From a virus (lineage: Duplodnaviria > Caudoviricetes): DNA of 64,000 nt. Positions 6,116 through 19,976 of the stretch are shown one piece after another. Position numbers and translations under genes: made by a program. A model generated the notes under the pieces. That model was not told the DNA's origin. It saw nothing but the letters and a program-made list of their open reading frames with translations, and made no database searches. The DNA lies in IMG/VR virus record IMGVR_UViG_3300010163_000005, positions 117,781-181,780 of that record. One strand, given 5' to 3'. Every line of letters begins with the position of its first letter. Position 1 is the first letter of the stretch.

Positions 6116-8371
6116 TTACAGATATTCGCTTACAATAATGTCAATATCAAAAGGTGTAATAATAGTTTTATTTTTAAAATCATTTTCTTCTATATTAGTT
6201 TCTTCAATACTATTTTTTTCCATATGAGTTTTTTCTATATTATTTTCTACATCAAAAATAATGTTAGCACTTTCTTTATTATCTACCTTTATTCCTCTTA
6301 CTATAGCATTTAACTCAAATAAATCATATAAATTAGGTTTATTCATATTTACTATACTATAACAAGTTGCAATAACATTATTTAATTGACTTTCAACATT
6401 ATAAAGACAGTACTTATTATTATAATATAAATAATTCTCTAATGGCAATGATATATCACACCAAATAAATTCTTTTTTAACAAGATCAAAAATTACTGGG
6501 ACACAAGAAGCACTTTTCATTGTCAAGTCCATTTTTTGTTCTACTGTTTTTGGCTCATATATTTCACCTGAATTACAATCTCGTCTGTTCATCCACCCAA
6601 ACATAGCATTAGGTAATTCATTAAAATTATTACCATTAAAACTATATACTTGATAAACCACATAGCGTACTCCGTTATCAATGTTACTCTTTATATCAAT
6701 ATCAATAAATTCACTAACACCTACACCATTTGGATCTCCACCATTAGTTATATCTCCCGAATGATACGATTTATATAAATCAGATTTTAAATTAGTATAT
6801 GATATATGAGTTAAATATTGCCATTTTTCATCAAACATTACTGCCGACAAATCTAAATCTATTACATCTTTATTAAATGTATTAGTCCACCAAATAAACG
6901 CTCTTAATGTTGTAACTTGTTCATCAAGACTTACTCTTGAACCTTTTGTTATAGTTTTTAAAGCCTTACTTGCACTTCGTTGACTAAAAGGAATTATATA
7001 ATTCTTTAACTTTTCCGATATATATACATTACCTAATAGACTTCTGCCCTGATATTTACTCATTAAAGCATTTTTACATATTAAAACAATCATATTACAA
7101 TACTTATTTTCAATTTCTTTTAATGTATTATCAATATAATAACTTTTAGCCATATTACCTTTTGGAAAAAATACTCTATATTTTAAATTTTCATTTCTAT
7201 GTTCAAAATGATTTTTTACCTGCCATAAAACAGGTGTAGAAATTTGATTAGCAATAGTTTTAAAAATATCGACAATTAATTGTTTATCATCTATATTCCT
7301 TAATAAAAAGTCTAATTTTCTTGCAAATTCTCCTGGTCTATCTTTTAATATATTAACTAAATCTTTATACTTTTTATTAGCAATAAATGCTTCAACCTTG
7401 CTATTAAATGTTTCTATTTTTATGTTATTACGCAATTTATCAAAAGCCTTGACAACTTTGTCAAATTGTTTATATTCAAAAGGATGTAATTTTTCACCAA
7501 TACGAATCCATTTATTTTTATATCGTTTCATATCTTCTTCAATATTATTGCAATTATTTAACAACAATAATATTAATTTCCGCTCTTTACGTTTAAAGTT
7601 TCTATATTTAGTATTAGAAGCTAAACTAATATCTCCATTTGACATAGCCGTTATTAATCGCAATACATCTGTTGCTGTTTTAATAAATTTTGATATTTTA
7701 TTAAACGAATTTAAATTAGGCACACTATAACATTCTGAATTTAAAATATTAAATATTTCTTGATGATTTTCTATATATATTTTGAGGATAAAAGCAACAT
7801 TTTCCTTTAAAGGTATTTCGTTTGGCAACGAAATATCAACATTTTTAAAAATTTGTGATATATCTTCTTTATCAATATTAGACAAAGAAGTTTTAGATGT
7901 ACACAAATTATTAAATATATTATATATATCTGATATATTCCCTAAATCAATCATTTTTACTTTATCAATATCAAATAGAGGTAATCGTTCATCTTTTTGT
8001 TCATTAGGATATAAGTTTCCATTTGACCAATAATGAGCAATTGCATTAAAATATAATTCACTTTCTTCCCTGCTCATTATAGACATAGGAAAATTAGGAT
8101 ACATAGGATTATAAGTCACATTTGCTCCAACTAACTTTTTTAATATAGGAATTAAATTTAAATAAAAATTTTGTAACTCTTGTATGTTGTATGTACATAA
8201 TAAATCAACAACATTTTTAGATAAAGTATATCCTAATTTTTCTATATTTTTTAAAATAGTAGATATGTACTCTTTATAATCTAATGATGGATATACGCTT
8301 GAACCTAAAATTAATTTATTTTTTCTTCTTAATAAAATCTCATTTAATAAAAAATTATCTGCTATATTCAT
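6116..8371 (-). CDS. ROT/TROVE-like helical-repeat protein with C-terminal TerD domain (Prok-RING_4-type architecture, no obvious RING finger)
   Basis: N-terminal YNPMYPNFP; TATDVLR; KLHPFEY; RPGEFARKLD; TerD-like IDLDLSA...HSGDITNG...SEFIDID; GGAGG RBS. Confidence 0.78.
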   Translation of the reverse strand: MNIADNFLLNEILLRRKNKLILGSSVYPSLDYKEYISTILKNIEKLGYTLSKNVVDLLCTYNIQELQNFYLNLIPILKKLVGANVTYNPMYPNFPMSIMSREESELYFNAIAHYWSNGNLYPNEQKDERLPLFDIDKVKMIDLGNISDIYNIFNNLCTSKTSLSNIDKEDISQIFKNVDISLPNEIPLKENVAFILKIYIENHQEIFNILNSECYSVPNLNSFNKISKFIKTATDVLRLITAMSNGDISLASNTKYRNFKRKERKLILLLLNNCNNIEEDMKRYKNKWIRIGEKLHPFEYKQFDKVVKAFDKLRNNIKIETFNSKVEAFIANKKYKDLVNILKDRPGEFARKLDFLLRNIDDKQLIVDIFKTIANQISTPVLWQVKNHFEHRNENLKYRVFFPKGNMAKSYYIDNTLKEIENKYCNMIVLICKNALMSKYQGRSLLGNVYISEKLKNYIIPFSQRSASKALKTITKGSRVSLDEQVTTLRAFIWWTNTFNKDVIDLDLSAVMFDEKWQYLTHISYTNLKSDLYKSYHSGDITNGGDPNGVGVSEFIDIDIKSNIDNGVRYVVYQVYSFNGNNFNELPNAMFGWMNRRDCNSGEIYEPKTVEQKMDLTMKSASCVPVIFDLVKKEFIWCDISLPLENYLYYNNKYCLYNVESQLNNVIATCYSIVNMNKPNLYDLFELNAIVRGIKVDNKESANIIFDVENNIEKTHMEKNSIEETNIEENDFKNKTIITPFDIDIIVSEYL

Positions 8372-14577: not shown

Positions 14578-15465
14578 TTAATAATTAGTTATTAAAATTT
14601 CCACATCTTTACTTTTATCTTTTTTCTGATAGTTACAATTACTATAATTATTGTCCAAATAATAAACATTATATTTATTTTTCCATTTATCTAAAATAAC
14701 ATTATTGTATTTTAAATTATTAGATAATGCAAATTTAATATTTTTATCATTTAATTTATCCAATATAATTAATAACATTTTTTCATCCTGTTCGCTCCAC
14801 ATTTTGTTATATGTTGCTATTGAATTTAAATATGGTGGATCGCAATAAACAAAATCATTTTTATCTAAATTTGAAAAATCATATTTATCATAACTACAAG
14901 AGGTAAAAGCACAATTTTGTTCCTTCAACTTATCTATAAAATTAGATAATTTTTGTTGTATGTTGCTATTAAAATCTCTTTTACCAACAGGCATATTAAA
15001 TCGACCTTTATTATTAAACCTTATTTGGTTATTAAACGCATAAATAAGAAGAACATAAAATTTTAAATAATATTTATAATCATATATCTTTTGATTATTA
15101 ATCCATTCTCTTAATTTCAAGTAATATTCCTTATTATAACTTCCTACTCCTTTATCACTGGTACATTTATAATAATCATATCCTTTTATATCTGTACGAG
15201 ATAACATATATTCATTAATTATTTGAAATATATTATCAAAAATATCCTGTTTATCATACTTTTTAAAAGCATCAAAAATACCTATTATTTTACTCTCTAT
15301 ATCATTATAAATTATTTTTATAGCATTTATATTAATACCGACATTACCACCACCACTAAATAAATCTATAAAATTTTTTATATTGTTTGGCAATAAAGGT
15401 ATTATTTGATTTAATAATTTATATTTTCCACCAACATAATTTAATGGTGATTTTATGTATTTCAT
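14578..15465 (-). CDS. Dam-like (D12 class) DNA adenine methyltransferase
   Basis: KSPLNYVGGKYKL, FIDLFSGG, NQIRFN..G.FN.P.G, VYCDPPY; start at MKYIKS with AAGGAG RBS. Confidence 0.9.
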   Translation of the reverse strand: MKYIKSPLNYVGGKYKLLNQIIPLLPNNIKNFIDLFSGGGNVGININAIKIIYNDIESKIIGIFDAFKKYDKQDIFDNIFQIINEYMLSRTDIKGYDYYKCTSDKGVGSYNKEYYLKLREWINNQKIYDYKYYLKFYVLLIYAFNNQIRFNNKGRFNMPVGKRDFNSNIQQKLSNFIDKLKEQNCAFTSCSYDKYDFSNLDKNDFVYCDPPYLNSIATYNKMWSEQDEKMLLIILDKLNDKNIKFALSNNLKYNNVILDKWKNKYNVYYLDNNYSNCNYQKKDKSKDVEILITNY

Positions 15466-15482
15466 TAATACAACTCCTTTTT

Positions 15483-16334
15483 CTAAATATTTAGAATATT
15501 TAACCATTCTTCTTTTTTAATTTCAGTATTTCCACTTATACCACCTTTTGTACTGCTAATTTTTAATTGTATCGCTTTATTTGTTATTTGCTTTTTCTCT
15601 GATATAAAAATCGGACTTGTTGTTATTTTTAATAATTCATTTATAAAATTAAATATATCAAAACTATCCTTATATTTAGTTGTATTCATATAAGGCGGAT
15701 CAATATAAATAATATTATTACCATTTTTTAATTGTTTATTGTTTAAAATTTTATATATATCTGTATGGTAACATTTTATGCCTTTTAACTTATTTGCTAT
15801 ATAAATTACTCTTTGTTCTAAAACATCTATCATTGGCTGCATAGGATTAACCACACTCTTACGTTTACTTGTTTTAGTAGGTTGCCAATAACTTCTAAAT
15901 GATGTATTTTTCCAAACACCATTATCATTATAAACTTGTTTACCACCAAATGCAGAAGCTTGTAATAGAATATAATAATATTCTTCATCTATATTAGCGT
16001 TCTGTTTAGATATTTGTTTCATATAATTCTGTATTTTACTTTTATCTCTTGGAACTTGCTTTGATATATCTAAAAATTTATTTATATTAAAAAATCCATC
16101 TCCTATACTTTTATAAAACAAACCAAACGAGCCTTTATCTAACATAATAATATTAGGAATATCAATTCCTCTATTAATTAAATTAAGCGTAATTGTTCCT
16201 GAACCACAACATAAATCATAAAACATAGTATCTTTTGTTATATTAACATTATTAAATATGTAATCTATAATTTGTTTTACTACGGCTTGTTTGCCGCCCT
16301 GATATGAACAAGGAGGAATTAATTCAATATTCAT
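15483..16334 (-). CDS. DNA adenine methyltransferase (D12-like)
   Basis: PPCSYQGGKQ, FYDLCCGSG, IYIDPPY. Confidence 0.85.
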   Translation of the reverse strand: MNIELIPPCSYQGGKQAVVKQIIDYIFNNVNITKDTMFYDLCCGSGTITLNLINRGIDIPNIIMLDKGSFGLFYKSIGDGFFNINKFLDISKQVPRDKSKIQNYMKQISKQNANIDEEYYYILLQASAFGGKQVYNDNGVWKNTSFRSYWQPTKTSKRKSVVNPMQPMIDVLEQRVIYIANKLKGIKCYHTDIYKILNNKQLKNGNNIIYIDPPYMNTTKYKDSFDIFNFINELLKITTSPIFISEKKQITNKAIQLKISSTKGGISGNTEIKKEEWLNILNI

Positions 16335-16494
16335 TCTTTTTCCTCTCTATTATTAATGAATTTTTCGAAATTGTAGTAATACAATTACAAATATTATCAT
16401 TTCTTATTTCTAAATGTTGTTTTGTTTTCTTGTTTGTATTATTTTTATATCTACCTCGTAGGCTTGCACATATAGGAAATCGTAAATCATACAT
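16324..16494 (-). CDS. Free-standing C5-MTase TRD-like mini-protein 4 (56 aa, absent from the ORF track)
   Basis: MYDLRFPICASLRGRYKNNTNKKTKQHLEIRNDNICNCITTISKNSLIIERKKNEY; AGAAGGTG RBS 6 nt upstream; stop overlaps the next start. Confidence 0.7.
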   Translation of the reverse strand: MYDLRFPICASLRGRYKNNTNKKTKQHLEIRNDNICNCITTISKNSLIIERKKNEY

Positions 16495-16590
16495 TATTAT
16501 CACCTTCTATAAACAATTTTTCTTTATATTTATAATACATAAGTTTTTTAAAAAACATATTCATTCTTAAAGCCATTAATAGTAAAATAA

Positions 16591-17499
16591 TCAGCTATGA
16601 TTATTTTGTAATCTTTCATAAGCTGTTTGACAATATTTTTCATTTATTTCAATTCCAATATATTTTCTATTTAGTTTTTTTGCTGCAACCAATGTTGAGC
16701 CACAACCACAAAAAGGATCTAATATTATCTGATTTTCTATGGTAGTTAAACTTATTAAAAACTCCATAAGTGCTATTGGCTTTTGAGTAGGATGTAAACC
16801 TCTGTCTGTCGTTTCTGTTTTACATTTAATAATATTTGAACAAACTTCTATTCCTGTATTATTCAATGGATTTTTTTTAATATATGTTTCATTGAATCCA
16901 CCAACATTATATTTAACAATATTATCAGTTAATGTGCTGCCGATTGGATATGGCTTTATAAACCATAATATTGGTTCAAATAAAGGGCGTAAATTACCTA
17001 TTTTCCAACCATTCCATTTTTTTATATTTTCATCATCACCTCTACGCTTAAAAATATTTTTTACATTTTGAGCACGATAAGCCGCTAAATCTTTTTTCCA
17101 AGCAATCATATCTTTAAAAATAAAATTTGAATCTTCCATAGCACAAATACACCTATGAGAAAATCGTCTGCCAGCAAAAATAAAACAACTTGCTCCAGGT
17201 TTTAAAACTCGAAACCATTCAGATGTCCAAGATAAACACCAATTATAATATTCAAGCGGTATTTTTTTATCAGCTTTAGACCAACCATTTAAAGGTTTTC
17301 CTCTGCTTTTAAAAACAGAAGATTTTTTTTGAGAGGGACTTGTACCAAGTAACGCTGAATTTTTATTGCTATGAATAACATCCCATGTATCTATTGATAT
17401 ACCATATGGTATATCGGAAAGTATAAGGTGAATAGAATTATCATCTATTTCTTTAATTTTTTCAATAGAATCCCCACACATTACATAATTTGTTTCCAT
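16591..17499 (-). CDS. Beta-class N6-adenine MTase, M.HindIII-like
   Basis: HLILSDIPYGI...WDVIH.N.NSAL.G.SP.Q...RGKPLNGWS.AD; HPTQKP; ILDPFCGCG; start at METNY with GAGGT RBS. Confidence 0.85.
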   Translation of the reverse strand: METNYVMCGDSIEKIKEIDDNSIHLILSDIPYGISIDTWDVIHSNKNSALLGTSPSQKKSSVFKSRGKPLNGWSKADKKIPLEYYNWCLSWTSEWFRVLKPGASCFIFAGRRFSHRCICAMEDSNFIFKDMIAWKKDLAAYRAQNVKNIFKRRGDDENIKKWNGWKIGNLRPLFEPILWFIKPYPIGSTLTDNIVKYNVGGFNETYIKKNPLNNTGIEVCSNIIKCKTETTDRGLHPTQKPIALMEFLISLTTIENQIILDPFCGCGSTLVAAKKLNRKYIGIEINEKYCQTAYERLQNNHS

Positions 17500-17527
17500 A
17501 TAAAAACCTCTTAATTTACAATAATTC

Positions 17528-17719
17528 TTAATAATCATTTTTTTCTATTATATAATTATCTTTTACTATTGTTGTTATTGTATTAATTATTCCATCATTT
17601 CTTATTGTATACTCTTTTAAGTTACATCTTCTTTCCTTAATATTTCCATTTTCATAATCTTTTCTTATTCGTTTTGCATATTCATTTCGTTGTGTTTTTA
17701 ATATATAAAACTTTTTCAT
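17528..17719 (-). CDS. Free-standing TRD-like mini-protein 3
   Basis: RNEYAKRIRKDYE.G.IKERRCN...IRNDGIINTITTIVKDNYIIE; AGGTGG RBS directly after the upstream stop. Confidence 0.7.
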   Translation of the reverse strand: MKKFYILKTQRNEYAKRIRKDYENGNIKERRCNLKEYTIRNDGIINTITTIVKDNYIIEKNDY

Positions 17720-17730
17720 ACAATCCACCT

Positions 17731-17940
17731 TTATTTATAAATTAAATATAAGCCTCCATTTCTTCCTATTCCAGAACCTTCAGCCATAATAGTTTGTATA
17801 ATACCTTTACTATCATAAATTCTATATCCTTGTTTGTAATTTCTTGAAATATTTTTTTTATTGTTTTCTTTAATTTTTATACCACCTATAAATATTAATT
17901 TATTTTTTGATTCCATATAAATAGCTGTTACCTCCTGCAT
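17731..17940 (-). CDS. Free-standing TRD-like mini-protein 2
   Basis: LIFIGGI...YKQGYRIYDSKGIIQTIMAEGSGIGRNGGLYL; start at 17940 or 17916. Confidence 0.7.
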   Translation of the reverse strand: MQEVTAIYMESKNKLIFIGGIKIKENNKKNISRNYKQGYRIYDSKGIIQTIMAEGSGIGRNGGLYLIYK

Positions 17941-18082
17941 TTCCTACTGGTTGTGATAAAAGACACATTATAATATGTTCTGATGAATAACTTCTATTAC
18001 CTTGCCTATATTGCTTACCAAAATTTTTATCTCCTATTCCACCAATTAATAAAGATTTATCTTCTGTAGTTATTGAAAATTT
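17900..18082 (-). CDS. TRD-like module 1 without a start codon, in the -1 frame of the C5-MTase
   Basis: 60 open codons: KFSITTEDKSLLIGGIGDKNFGKQYRQGNRSYSSEHIIMCLLSQPVGNAGGNSYLYGIKK; begins at the A-AAT-TTT heptamer (18076-18082). Confidence 0.65.
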   Translation of the reverse strand, partial: KFSITTEDKSLLIGGIGDKNFGKQYRQGNRSYSSEHIIMCLLSQPVGNAGGNSYLYGIKK

Positions 18083-19125
18083 TCATCATAACAAATATAA
18101 CTATTATCATATTGTGCTTTATATAAATGCTCCATTATTAACTCTATGCAATTTGTTATTATTCCGTTTCCCGCCTGTTTTGCTATGTTATTATCTGATA
18201 CACATACTTTTTTTATTTTATTATAATCTTCATTAGTTAATCCCATAAATAACAACATTTCTTTTTCTGTTAATCTTCTAACTCTAATATCATTTATATC
18301 AACCTCTTTTGCAAAATGAATATTACTTAATGTTTTTTCTGTTAAATAATATTTTTCATCTACTTCTTTTTCTAATAAATCTTCCGCTCTTAAACCATTA
18401 TCAAACGGTTTAGGAAAAGTAAATAATTTTGTATCTATATCTTTTTTTATACATACAGCAAAAACTCTTTCCCTACTTTGTGGTATACCACAATCTTTGC
18501 CATTTAATATTTTCCAATATATATTATAACCTATATTTTCTAATATGTCTAATAAATCATTAAAATCATTGATAAACTTTTTACTTACCAAAGCTTTAAC
18601 ATTTTCAAACATTAAATATTTAGGTAATTGATTATCTATTTTAGCCTGATTTAATAATCTGATACTCTCCCATAATAAACTACTTCTTGTGTTACTATCA
18701 ATGTTAAAACCTTTCATTTTACCCGCATATGATATATCAGTACACATAAATGATATAGTCCATAAATCTGCATATTTTAATTTATCAACTTTACATATAT
18801 CACCTAAATTATTAGATAATTTACAAGCTAACCAATATTTTTTTATGTCCTTACATCTGCTCCAATTAAAAGATTTTTTATTTTTAAAATTATATCCTAT
18901 GTTTTTACTTTCTAATTCTTTTATCATTTCTTCTTTTGCTGGATATTTATATTCTTCTATTAATTCATTTGTTAGATTATTATGTATAGCAGCATATGAC
19001 AAAGTAGAATCTTTGTTTATTTCAGACGTATTTACAACTTCTAAATCAAATAAATTAGTATTTAATATCCCTCTCTCTTGGCAACCTATGCCTGAAAAAA
19101 GAATGTTCGCTGTTAATTGTTCCAC
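18070..19125 (-). CDS. DNA (cytosine-5) methyltransferase with a very short variable region
   Basis: Motif I LFSGIG, motif IV SFMCTDIS (MC instead of PC), motif VI FENV, motif VIII PQSRER, motif IX RRLT.KE, motif X KQAGNGI. Confidence 0.9.
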   Translation of the reverse strand: MEQLTANILFSGIGCQERGILNTNLFDLEVVNTSEINKDSTLSYAAIHNNLTNELIEEYKYPAKEEMIKELESKNIGYNFKNKKSFNWSRCKDIKKYWLACKLSNNLGDICKVDKLKYADLWTISFMCTDISYAGKMKGFNIDSNTRSSLLWESIRLLNQAKIDNQLPKYLMFENVKALVSKKFINDFNDLLDILENIGYNIYWKILNGKDCGIPQSRERVFAVCIKKDIDTKLFTFPKPFDNGLRAEDLLEKEVDEKYYLTEKTLSNIHFAKEVDINDIRVRRLTEKEMLLFMGLTNEDYNKIKKVCVSDNNIAKQAGNGIITNCIELIMEHLYKAQYDNSYICYDENFQ

Positions 19126-19172
19126 AATATCATCTCCTTTTATAAAATATAAAAAAAATACTTATTTTTCAA

Positions 19173-19976
19173 CTATTTTATATTAGGAATATATTTTTTT
19201 AAAACATCTACAATATGAAATTGTTGTATTTTTTTCATAGCAATACAATTAACATATTTTTTCCAATTAAACGTATTAAATAAATTAATTATATTTTCTT
19301 TTAATTTTTCATTATTAACTTTTATTTTATACTCTGCTGAATAATGTTCATTATTATTTAATATTTTACCTGCTGTTCCATCTCCCCAATAGCACATTCT
19401 TATATCAAAATCCTTATCATTATAATTCTTACTATCTTGACGATATATAGTTACGTCTTGTAATTTTGATATAGGTTTATTATTTAATTTATTTATAGGT
19501 CTTTTATAAATATTAAAACAACAATGTAATTTTCTATCGGTATATGTATGTATTCCTAAATCTTTACTATAAATTAAATCAAATTCATACATGGAGCGGG
19601 AATTATTTAATTGACTAATTGGTAAAATAAACGCTATATAATCTGCAATTTGTATTGATTTTTTATAAAATTTTTGTGCTAAGTTCAAACATCTTCCATA
19701 AGGTGGATTGCCAATAATCAACCTACCATATAAATATGTAATATCAGCAGATAAATAATCTTGTTTAAATATTTTAGTTTTAGTATTTTCAATACAAGGT
19801 TCTATATCATATCCAAAATGAATAAATAATTTATTGTGATGTGTAAAACTTCCATTACCTATACTTGGTTCAATAACTTCTGAAATATTATTTGTTCCAA
19901 TAATATTACAAACCTTATCCATACAATAATTAGCTAAATCAATAGGTGTATAATATTTATCATTTTTTATTTTCAT
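19173..19976 (-). CDS. N6-adenine DNA methyltransferase (gamma-type order)
   Basis: DKYYTP, IEPSIGNGSF, IIGNPPYG. Confidence 0.85.
   Translation of the reverse strand: MKIKNDKYYTPIDLANYCMDKVCNIIGTNNISEVIEPSIGNGSFTHHNKLFIHFGYDIEPCIENTKTKIFKQDYLSADITYLYGRLIIGNPPYGRCLNLAQKFYKKSIQIADYIAFILPISQLNNSRSMYEFDLIYSKDLGIHTYTDRKLHCCFNIYKRPINKLNNKPISKLQDVTIYRQDSKNYNDKDFDIRMCYWGDGTAGKILNNNEHYSAEYKIKVNNEKLKENIINLFNTFNWKKYVNCIAMKKIQQFHIVDVLKKYIPNIK

Follow-up and report, generated by a model that had tools for sequence, protein, structure and literature searches.

C5 cytosine methyltransferases (C5-MTases) are the textbook case of target reading by a domain, the TRD, that is inserted between motifs VIII and IX of the enzyme. 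In the window analysed here (64,000 nucleotides, positions 117,781-181,780 of IMG/VR record IMGVR_UViG_3300010163_000005, a 182-kb phage), a C5-MTase gene is accompanied by four short open reading frames (ORFs) of two types, A and B. An earlier note on this DNA had regarded the enzyme as a TRD-less catalytic core and the short ORFs as free-standing TRDs. The locus therefore raises the question of whether the core indeed lacks a TRD, whether the short ORFs are TRDs, and how they could be produced and used by a core that does not contain them. The window phage is AT-rich. The features of the locus are as follows.

18070..19125, minus strand: 351-aa C5 cytosine methyltransferase core with motifs I-X and no internal TRD; GTG start, preceded by AAGGAG
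18076..18082, minus strand: slippery heptamer A_AAT_TTT, in phase; covers the last base of Glu and all of Asn and Phe in the C-terminal E-N-F
17900..18082, minus strand: TRD module A1, 60 codons without a start codon; frame -1 with respect to the core
17903..17908, minus strand: A6 run at the end of A1; with one A fewer, A1 and A2 would form a 116-codon two-TRD extension ORF
17731..17916, minus strand: TRD module A2, 61 aa from ATG 17916; in the frame of the core, overlapping the end of A1
17528..17719, minus strand: TRD module B1, 63 aa; AGGTGG, 5 nt, ATG at 17719
16591..17499, minus strand: N6_N4 amino-methyltransferase gene (PF01555, 9.5e-49), context, between B1 and B2
16324..16494, minus strand: TRD module B2, 56 aa; AAGGTGA, 5 nt, ATG at 16494
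15483..16334, minus strand: D12-class-like adenine methyltransferase gene (PF02086, 1.7e-7), context, directly after B2

The Catalytic Core

The core matches Pfam PF00145 at 8.8e-43, its best PDB matches are M.MpeI and M.HhaI, and motifs I, IV (with the catalytic Cys), VI, VIII, IX and X follow one another in the canonical order of C5-MTases. Motif I, Cys128, ENV, QSRER, R283 and GN319-320 are located at alignment columns with no or almost no variation among 22 homologues, and the family-conserved columns comprise F10, G12, G14, C128, E174-N175-V176, Q216, R218-E219-R220, R283 and G319-N320. The spacing between motifs VIII and IX is 67 residues, the second shortest among 83 related MTases (median 238); the shortest spacing that still holds a TRD is 81, and relatives range from 81 to over 400. 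About 40 of the 67 residues are a conserved leader, and only ~20 residues stand at the place where relatives carry one to six TRDs. Core residues 238-280 align to residues 249-333 of M.MpeI (4dkj), with about 42 residues missing. Compared with the 83 related MTases and with M.MpeI, the core chain contains no TRD between motifs VIII and IX, as the earlier note had claimed. Two of the 83 MTases have TRD-less cores, and both are accompanied by external TRDs.

The core departs from the family consensus at two conserved positions, with M for P before the catalytic Cys (relatives show Cys there) and E and M instead of P and C in motif IX. These departures in motifs IV and IX favor the main rival reading, in which the locus is a decaying remnant of an ancestor with internal TRDs and a frameshift-appended TRD array: the internal TRDs were deleted, the frameshift hairpin eroded, an indel separated A1 from A2, two amino-MTase genes were inserted into the array, and what is left is an inactive core with modules that became relics too recently to have gained stop codons. 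The core nevertheless keeps every family-invariant catalytic residue, and decay is considered unlikely, although it is the alternative to be taken most seriously in what follows.

Identity of the Modules

Based on sequence comparison, A1, A2, B1 and B2 are true C5-MTase TRD types, and all four types occur as ordinary internal TRDs of other C5-MTases. The four ORFs and their division into two types were confirmed: B1 and B2 resemble each other at E 8e-5, and A2 resembles the A1 modules of relatives at E 2e-4 to 6e-4. Searches of the kind proposed earlier as a check matched the modules to C5-MTases. B1 aligns at 53% identity (E 8e-10) with a segment of the Bacteroides phage BT24 MTase located between motifs VIII and IX (residues 353-405), and stand-alone B1 homologues of 62-80 aa exist. 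A1 matches 156 clusters and is located directly before motif IX in many full-length MTases; 83 of the best 150 matches are shorter than 160 aa, and in GenBank phages A1 was found in only one record, the metagenome-derived Dulem virus 39. A2 matches 84 phage records, and nearly all of the matches listed are annotated as C5-MTases; its relatives were found by tblastn and exhaustive search, and a word-based search for longer relatives gave nothing. The A2 type is an internal TRD in the MTase of L026 (629 aa) and a frameshift-appended module in L019. B2 is the least conserved module (36-56% identity to relatives), and its type is internal in L026, L036, L042, L052 and L053 and C-terminal in L009, L014, L019 and L121. 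Pfam assigned no family to any of the four module peptides, and an MCM_C match on B2 was sub-threshold (17.6 bits vs. a cut-off of 27) and was dismissed.

The likeness of these peptides to variable-region segments of Firmicute phage MTases, stated in the earlier note, was supported as regards C5-MTase TRD types, but the match to the Bacillus phage enzymes is weak (A2 against the rho11s and H2 enzymes, E 0.06-0.07). None of the four TRD-type modules in the window (0/4) is inside the core ORF, and the SPR-type layout of several TRDs in one polypeptide is found instead in relatives such as L005-L011 and L026.

With 0.107 stops per codon expected on this strand, 60 open codons have a probability of about 0.001, and only 1.3% of the window's short stop-to-stop segments attain a length of 59 codons; the four ORFs are therefore beyond chance. 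That five ORFs, the core included, are all intact under these conditions argues against decay. Alternative genetic codes were considered and rejected, since table 11 leaves the long genes of the island open and the modules occupy different frames. Selection on the modules appears visible in comparisons with relatives: module dN is 0.18-0.74, with all comparisons but one at or below 0.50, core dN is 0.30-0.42, and dS is saturated or at least 0.88, a dN/dS comparison with distant relatives that is blind to recent loss of function. Module dN does not exceed core dN, with the exception of B2 vs. L063, which again does not favor decay.

A Probable Frameshift Site at the Core/A1 Junction

The earlier note had assigned to each module its own ribosome-binding site or a stop/start overlap. 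For A1 this did not hold, since neither an ATG, GTG or TTG ahead of the TRD nor a Shine-Dalgarno site was found; A1 is therefore not a free-standing gene. A -1 frameshift probably attaches A1 to the C-terminus of the core. The heptamer at the junction has the form X_XXY_YYZ and is in phase, the 0-frame stop of the core is two codons past it, and the -1 frame is closed just upstream and then open for 60 codons, with no ATG, GTG or TTG before the TRD.

The same organization was found in relatives. Among 33 unique junctions with an in-phase AAATTTT, 30 are followed by an open, start-less -1 ORF of at least 66 codons that encodes TRDs. In all of these relatives the last base of the codon before the heptamer is A, with a varying amino acid, and in most of them a spacer of 5-6 nt follows the heptamer and then a hairpin of 11-15 bp. 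Compensatory changes were observed in 5 of 11 hairpin pairs, with 4 of 242 cells broken, and L019, L065 and L113 carry hairpins of unrelated sequence at the same spacing; the L144 stem is weaker (-9.2 kcal/mol) and begins about 2 nt after the heptamer. Taken as a sequence pattern, the heptamer and hairpin of the relatives are a conserved -1 frameshift signal that would append TRDs after motif X. No paper on a frameshift in a DNA methyltransferase gene was found in the literature.

In the window, the stimulatory hairpin downstream of the heptamer is absent: the fold reaches -5 kcal/mol (z +0.38), compared with z -3.0 to -3.4 at the three junctions of relatives that were tested. Because the hairpin that accompanies the heptamer in relatives is missing, A1 may be made rarely or never. 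The missing hairpin is also a point in favor of decay, together with the single base that separates A1 and A2 from one ORF. This separation in the A6 run could be a mutation or an assembly error, which leads to another alternative, namely that core, A1 and A2 form one ORF as in P0013 and that the frame changes at A4T4 and A6 are homopolymer errors. In its favor, core and A2 share a frame, with A1 between two homopolymer tracts, and the draft genome of ASF492 (L155) differs by two frameshifts from the in-frame copy of the same prophage (L121). However, a -1 offset at exactly A_AAT_TTT is usual, being found at 30 independent junctions in many samples, and the first of the two frame changes should accordingly be real. 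The doubt is limited to the A6 run, and B1 and B2 are set apart by whole genes and by stops in every frame; such an artefact is very improbable. No second copy of the core-A1 junction of the window was found by exact search of viral contigs.

Separately Encoded Modules

A2, B1 and B2 have their own ATG, unlike A1, which is a start-less -1-frame extension. An alternative upstream ATG of A2 is at 17940. The Shine-Dalgarno site of A2, AGGAGG, is located 14 nt upstream of ATG 17916 and is a by-product of conserved A1 codons; this distance speaks against separate production of A2. The predicted starts of B1 and B2, each with a strong Shine-Dalgarno site and its own ATG, are convincing and in agreement with the ribosome-binding sites noticed earlier, and the stop codon of B2 lies within the beginning of the MTase gene that follows. 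Inspection of the A1-A2 and A2-B1 junctions by reading revealed no suitable -1 or +1 slip site.

External TRDs were also observed in other genomes; a comparison of homologous loci had been among the checks proposed in the earlier note. TRDs follow motif X in frame in L019, L121, L145, L152, P0026 and P0013, the last of which keeps an internally TRD-less core and external TRDs in one intact ORF of 504 aa. Separate TRD cistrons recur in other phages (L059/L060, L061, L063, L064, L129) and in the isolate Ruminococcus sp. YE282 (L158); they break exactly at module boundaries, nearly all start with ATG, and many have a GGAGG-type site. Separately encoded TRDs thus seem to be a recurrent architecture, common to many uncultured phages and apparently selected.

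The relatives bear on decay in both directions. The nearest ones fuse the modules in one extension ORF, whereas other MTase genes stand between the modules of the window, as they would after an array-breaking insertion. L012, the closest AT-rich relative, has an in-frame stop in the MTase and no extension, and L155 is an example of such genes breaking. Genuine breakage in L155, however, is at random places and without an ATG, while B1 and B2 have a near-optimal Shine-Dalgarno site and an ATG exactly at the module boundary, as in the separate cistrons of unrelated phages, and P0013 is intact with a TRD-less core and external TRDs.

Neighboring Genes and Other Possible Roles

Four amino-methyltransferase genes neighbor the C5-MTase locus, one of them directly downstream of B1 and another directly downstream of B2. 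The likely start of the PF01555 gene is ATG 17499, preceded by AAGAGG. A scan of the island found no terminator-like sites, with about 0.9 expected by chance, and promoter-like sites were not more frequent than in shuffles. The modules are all in direct orientation.

The modules could also be silent spare parts or recombination cassettes for the core, DNA-binding decoys, or partners of the amino-MTases. TRD shuffling between MTases is well known, and B1 and B2 each stand directly upstream of an amino-MTase gene. However, a repeat search of 16200-19200 returned AT-rich chance repeats only and no support for a DNA cassette or inversion model; modules and core have no common direct or inverted repeats beyond AT-rich noise, and the direct orientation of the modules does not favor such a model either. 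In relatives, the B1 and B2 types belong to the C5-MTase extension with no amino-MTase beside it, we know of no fit of C5-MTase TRDs to amino-MTases, and the complex model described below puts A1 at the TRD site of the C5 core. Such roles are given the least weight of all the alternatives, slightly below the artefact.

Modelled Docking of A1 on the Core

Modelling of the core with a peptide had been suggested as a check and was carried out for A1. The complex model reached a median score of 0.79, and the best of three controls 0.00. The mark applied is reached by 58 of 80 solved complexes and by 2 of 110 mismatched pairs; these rates apply only roughly here, since the model was built on our own alignments. 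At least 90% of the contacts recur between runs, the partner pLDDT is 51-75, and the modelled contacts on the core are residues 215-219, 242-251, 261-285 and 315-320. The model places A1 in trans on the core at the canonical TRD site. In the solved folds of M.HhaI, M.HaeIII and M.MpeI the TRD is covalently attached at this same site, and the pass of the model may come from likeness to these folds. To our knowledge, no free TRD peptide working with any C5-MTase has been demonstrated.

Proposed Mechanism

Based on these results, we lean towards the locus being a multi-part, probably multispecific C5-MTase whose TRDs are supplied from outside the VIII-IX position. In the mechanism that we infer, which extends to the translation of each module in the window phage, its docking, its activity and the target specificities, the ribosome would slip back one base at A_AAT_TTT and join A1 to the C-terminus of the core, probably at low efficiency in the window phage, which lacks the stimulating hairpin. 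Loss of one A from the A6 run would append A2 as well. Translation from their own ATGs could in addition give A2, B1 and B2 as free peptides of ~56-63 aa. Whether tethered or free, each TRD would dock beside motifs VIII, IX and X, with its last strand pairing with the strand of motif IX, and since the small domain would thereby be rebuilt, each TRD would send the single core to a different target sequence. Together with the four neighboring amino-methyltransferase genes, the C5 core and its TRDs would protect the phage DNA from host restriction. The trans action, multispecificity and anti-restriction role of the modules that the earlier note had proposed are likewise what we infer. More tentatively, and as nearly an even call, the ~60-aa TRD-only peptides could be exchangeable specificity subunits for a TRD-less core, with the frameshift signal and the homopolymers setting which TRDs are tethered and which are free.

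Comparison With Known Systems and Implications

The multispecific enzymes of Bacillus phages (M.SPRI, M.Phi3TI, M.Rho11sI and M.H2I) are comparable to the window system in having one core and several TRDs of ~40-60 aa, in being phage-encoded, and in their presumed protection against several restriction systems. Their TRDs, however, are in tandem in one polypeptide between motifs VIII and IX, whereas the window has its TRDs downstream of motif X, in a different frame, or in cistrons of their own. Type I HsdS serves an adenine MTase as a large scaffold with two TRDs; as in the system proposed here, the recognition polypeptide is separate from the catalytic methyltransferase, but HsdS has no homology to the window modules, which are C5 TRDs of 56-63 aa. 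In the -1 frameshifting of the lambda G/GT and E. coli dnaX type, one gene gives a short and a long product. The relatives share its in-phase heptamer, 5-6 nt spacer, hairpin and start-less -1 ORF; they differ in that the extended product is an enzyme gaining specificity modules, and the window differs in lacking the hairpin.

C5-MTases that are naturally split include M.AquI and M.EcoHK31I, and fragment complementation was reported for M.BspRI, M.BsuRI, M.HhaI and M.SssI (PMC3404938). As proposed for the window, these enzymes owe their activity to more than one polypeptide, and a break in the variable region is tolerated. L059, L063, L064, L129 and L158 resemble M.AquI, with motifs I-VIII in one chain and the TRD with motifs IX-X in another. 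In M.AquI, however, conserved motifs are on both chains and a TRD-only chain is not described, whereas the window core is unsplit. Circularly permuted C5-MTases, among them M.BssHII, stay active with their TRD and motif blocks in a changed order, and their N- and C-termini are close together (PMC5944983); the order I-VIII, IX, X, TRD of the window is not a circular permutation and thus differs from the M.BssHII type. No published description of a TRD-less core with external TRD modules was found, and the detached-TRD arrangement of a C5-MTase is apparently undescribed.

The in-frame fusions L121, L019 and P0013 indicate only that the fused form is viable elsewhere. The window is the cleanest natural test case for external TRDs, because its core has no internal TRD to mask them. 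If TRDs work at the C-terminus or as free 60-aa peptides, the rule of insertion between motifs VIII and IX would be looser than thought, and methylation specificity could be engineered with a natural plug-in system. With free TRD-only peptides as exchangeable subunits, a Type-I-like division of labor would exist inside a Type II-style cytosine methylase. The ribosomal frameshift would then set the ratio of narrow to broad enzyme. For the phages, anti-restriction methylation would be expandable one small cistron at a time with the enzyme gene untouched, and methylation specificities would be gained, lost or switched through such cistrons.

Organization of the methyltransferase island

The virus record, 181,780 bp long and 22.8% G+C, has inverted terminal repeats, and the window is its last 64 kb. 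A methyltransferase island was found on the minus strand at 13.8-20 kb of the window, and its genes, from upstream to downstream, are as follows.

19173-19976, minus strand: 267-aa ORF with an NPPY motif, directly upstream of the C5 core, no Pfam match
18070-19125, minus strand: C5-methyltransferase (C5-MTase) core, PF00145
17900-18082, minus strand: module A1, target-recognition domain (TRD) type
17731-17916/17940, minus strand: module A2, TRD type
17528-17719, minus strand: module B1, TRD type
16591-17499, minus strand: N6_N4 methyltransferase, between B1 and B2
16324-16494, minus strand: module B2, TRD type
15483-16334, minus strand: first of two D12-class methyltransferases, after B2
14578-15507, minus strand: second D12-class methyltransferase, after the first
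last of the island, minus strand: thymidylate kinase-like gene, judged by eye from its sequence, without a Pfam scan

The NPPY-motif ORF is probably a fifth DNA methyltransferase of the island. A scan of the island for terminator-like sites found none, about 0.9 being expected by chance. A second C5-MTase of unrelated type (399 aa, G000:C1:92141-93316) lies outside the window; it has an internal variable region of its own, and small TRD ORFs are absent nearby. No further copies of A1, A2, B1 or B2 exist in the phage genome. A rival explanation, that the modules are DNA cassettes for recombination, is countered by the finding of no repeats at the locus.

The core and its modules

The core carries all catalytic C5-MTase motifs (PF00145 at 8.8e-43) and retains the family-invariant residues, and its family-wide leader is followed by about 20 residues up to motif IX. 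Motifs VIII and IX are 67 residues apart, against a median of 238 among 83 related MTases; in this set the shortest distance with a TRD present was 81 residues, and the sole enzyme below the window core was the relative P0013, with 64. In comparison with M.MpeI, 43 residues of the core stand in place of 85 in the solved enzyme. The short distance and the half-length stretch indicate that the core has no TRD, as the earlier note had proposed.

Sequence comparison identifies A1, A2, B1 and B2 as TRDs. B1 shares 53% identity (E 8e-10) with the MTase of Bacteroides phage BT24 over its residues 353-405, a segment located between motif VIII at 169 and motif IX at 444. A1 matched 156 clusters in an exhaustive search and is placed directly before motif IX in the long matches, and modules of the A2 and B2 types occur as internal TRDs in the related loci L026, L036, L042, L052 and L053. 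A2 was matched in 84 phage records, with a C5-MTase annotation under almost all matches listed; its match to the Bacillus rho11s and H2 enzymes was only weak.

Against relatives, dN was 0.18-0.34 for A1, 0.39-0.41 for A2, 0.23-0.48 for B1, 0.37-0.74 for B2 and 0.30-0.42 for the core, with dS of at least 0.88 or saturated throughout. Each codon has a stop probability of 0.107, which leaves 60 codons a chance of about 0.001 of staying open. The dN/dS figures and the improbably open frames argue for long-term purifying selection, but are blind to recent loss in this lineage.

Complex prediction for the core with A1 gave a median score of 0.79, compared with 0.00 for the best of three controls. 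Of 80 solved complexes 58 attained this mark, as did 2 of 110 mismatched pairs; these counts apply only approximately here, since the alignments given as input were our own. Contact agreement between runs was at least 90%, with a partner pLDDT of 51-75. On the core side, the modelled contacts fall at residues 215-219 in motif VIII, at 242-251, at 261-285 in the leader and motif IX, and at 315-320 in motif X; the last strand of A1 is placed beside residues 281-285, with which it is predicted to pair. The model lends support to a putative binding of A1 to the core. The docking result may reflect likeness to solved folds rather than real affinity, because A1 is placed where solved enzymes hold their TRD covalently.

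The probable frameshift junction

A1 had been described as a free-standing mini-gene, which was not borne out: no ATG, GTG or TTG precedes its TRD, no Shine-Dalgarno site is present, and it begins in the -1 frame where the C-terminal Glu-Asn-Phe codons of the core make up an in-phase A_AAT_TTT. IMG/VR contigs contain 33 distinct junctions at which a C5-MTase closes with this in-phase heptamer, and 30 of them are followed by a start-less -1 ORF of 66-222 codons with one to three TRDs. The codon preceding the heptamer always ends in A, whichever amino acid it specifies (Glu, Gly, Val, Ile, Leu or Ala). At most junctions, including that of L077, an 11-15 bp hairpin is located 5-6 nt past the heptamer, with 50-nt folding energies between -11 and -22 kcal/mol and z of -3.0 to -3.4 against shuffles in the three relatives tested. 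Among 22 distinct aligned junctions, compensatory changes were found in 5 of 11 pairs and only 4 of 242 cells were broken. Hairpins of unrelated sequence occupy the same distance from the heptamer in L019 (second junction), L065 and L113, and in L144 a weaker stem (-9.2 kcal/mol) lies closer.

On sequence grounds, the heptamer, hairpin and start-less -1 ORF of the relatives form the classic hallmark of programmed -1 frameshifting, so the family would routinely put TRDs after motif X. TRDs also follow motif X in frame in L121, L019, L145, L152, P0026 and P0013, which makes the fusion a naturally occurring protein. At the window junction the heptamer is kept and the hairpin is absent (z +0.38); since the hairpin is missing, the A1 product may be rare in the window phage.

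In L016 (7338-7350; = L120) the slippery site has T5 instead of T4, so that the MTase ends at once after it and the TRD extension is in the +1 frame; this change at the frameshift site is either natural indel variation or an error of assembly. The C5-MTases of L014 (4534-7059) and L053 (4723-7161) contain an intein-like insertion exactly at the motif IV catalytic Pro-Cys; L014 additionally carries three TRDs on a frameshift extension of 179 codons.

In the window, core and A2 share a frame, with A1 between them in the -1 frame. Shortening the A6 run (17903-17908) by a single A would join A1 and A2 into one 116-codon extension ORF, resembling those with two TRDs in L009 and L011. The run may have arisen by mutation or through an assembly error, or may serve as a switch; an assembly artefact would explain this run at most.

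Separate TRD cistrons

A second architecture, a split MTase, was found in L059/L060 (two independent runs), L061, L063, L064, L129 and L158, the last from cultured Ruminococcus sp. YE282. Motifs I-VIII are on an N-terminal chain and motifs IX-X, together with a TRD, on another, accompanied by up to six small ORFs of one TRD each. The breaks fall at module boundaries, with overlapping ORFs and changing frames; nearly all ORFs have an ATG a few codons ahead of the TRD, often with a GGAGG-type site upstream. As in the window, TRD cistrons are also present downstream of the motif IX-X chain in L129, L064 and L158. Matches to A1 shorter than 160 aa make up 83 of the best 150, and dozens begin at a Met 5-12 residues ahead of the conserved block and end just past it; free-standing homologues of B1 measure 62-80 aa. 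Hosts of the related prophage-like loci are mostly Clostridia, and some contigs were binned in Bacteroidales MAGs.

In the window, B1 and B2 have near-optimal Shine-Dalgarno sites with an ATG at the module boundary, which places both with the separate-cistron class. For A2, the boundary ATG is present but the Shine-Dalgarno site is distant.

Genuine damage takes a different form, as seen in the Eubacterium plexicaudatum ASF492 draft (L155), where a prophage MTase is broken by two frameshifts at arbitrary positions, none with an ATG; in L121 (IMG/VR) the same prophage MTase is intact, its A1 and B2 TRDs joined in frame at the C-terminus. Among the split loci, a B2-type TRD cistron contains roughly ten consecutive G (L059:3895-3915), and L060, from a different sample, differs from L059 by an indel in a G-run of the motif IX-X chain. 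An S-adenosylmethionine synthetase is encoded a few genes upstream of the split C5-MTase on a 162-kb phage contig (L064:116-1171). In-frame stops interrupt otherwise conserved C5-MTase genes at L027:6370-6390 (within motif IV) and L012:6800-6810 (leader), and L027 has a +1 frame change just ahead of motif IX (7379-7419); these could be pseudogenes, recoding or errors.

Interpretation of the locus

The main rival, that the locus is a decaying form of a formerly frameshift-extended enzyme, is considered unlikely, although several features favour it: the hairpin has been lost, A1 and A2 are split by one base, other genes are interposed among the modules, and the core departs twice from consensus, in motifs IV and IX. 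Against decay, the reading frames of core and modules are intact, the catalytic residues are kept, the module starts are well placed, and P0013 represents an intact in-frame analogue.

Multispecific phage MTases with tandem TRDs inside the chain are known, as is -1 frameshifting as a general phenomenon. Two-chain C5-MTases (M.AquI and M.EcoHK31I) and fragment complementation have been reported (PMC3404938), as have circular permutants of C5-MTases (PMC5944983). In the literature covered by our search, where absence is not proof, no paper was found that describes TRD-only cistrons, TRDs located behind motif X, or a frameshift in the gene for a DNA methyltransferase. On balance we lean towards the view that the locus encodes a multi-part multispecific C5-MTase, in which a TRD-less core would be completed by external TRDs, either tethered via frameshifting or supplied as free peptides.
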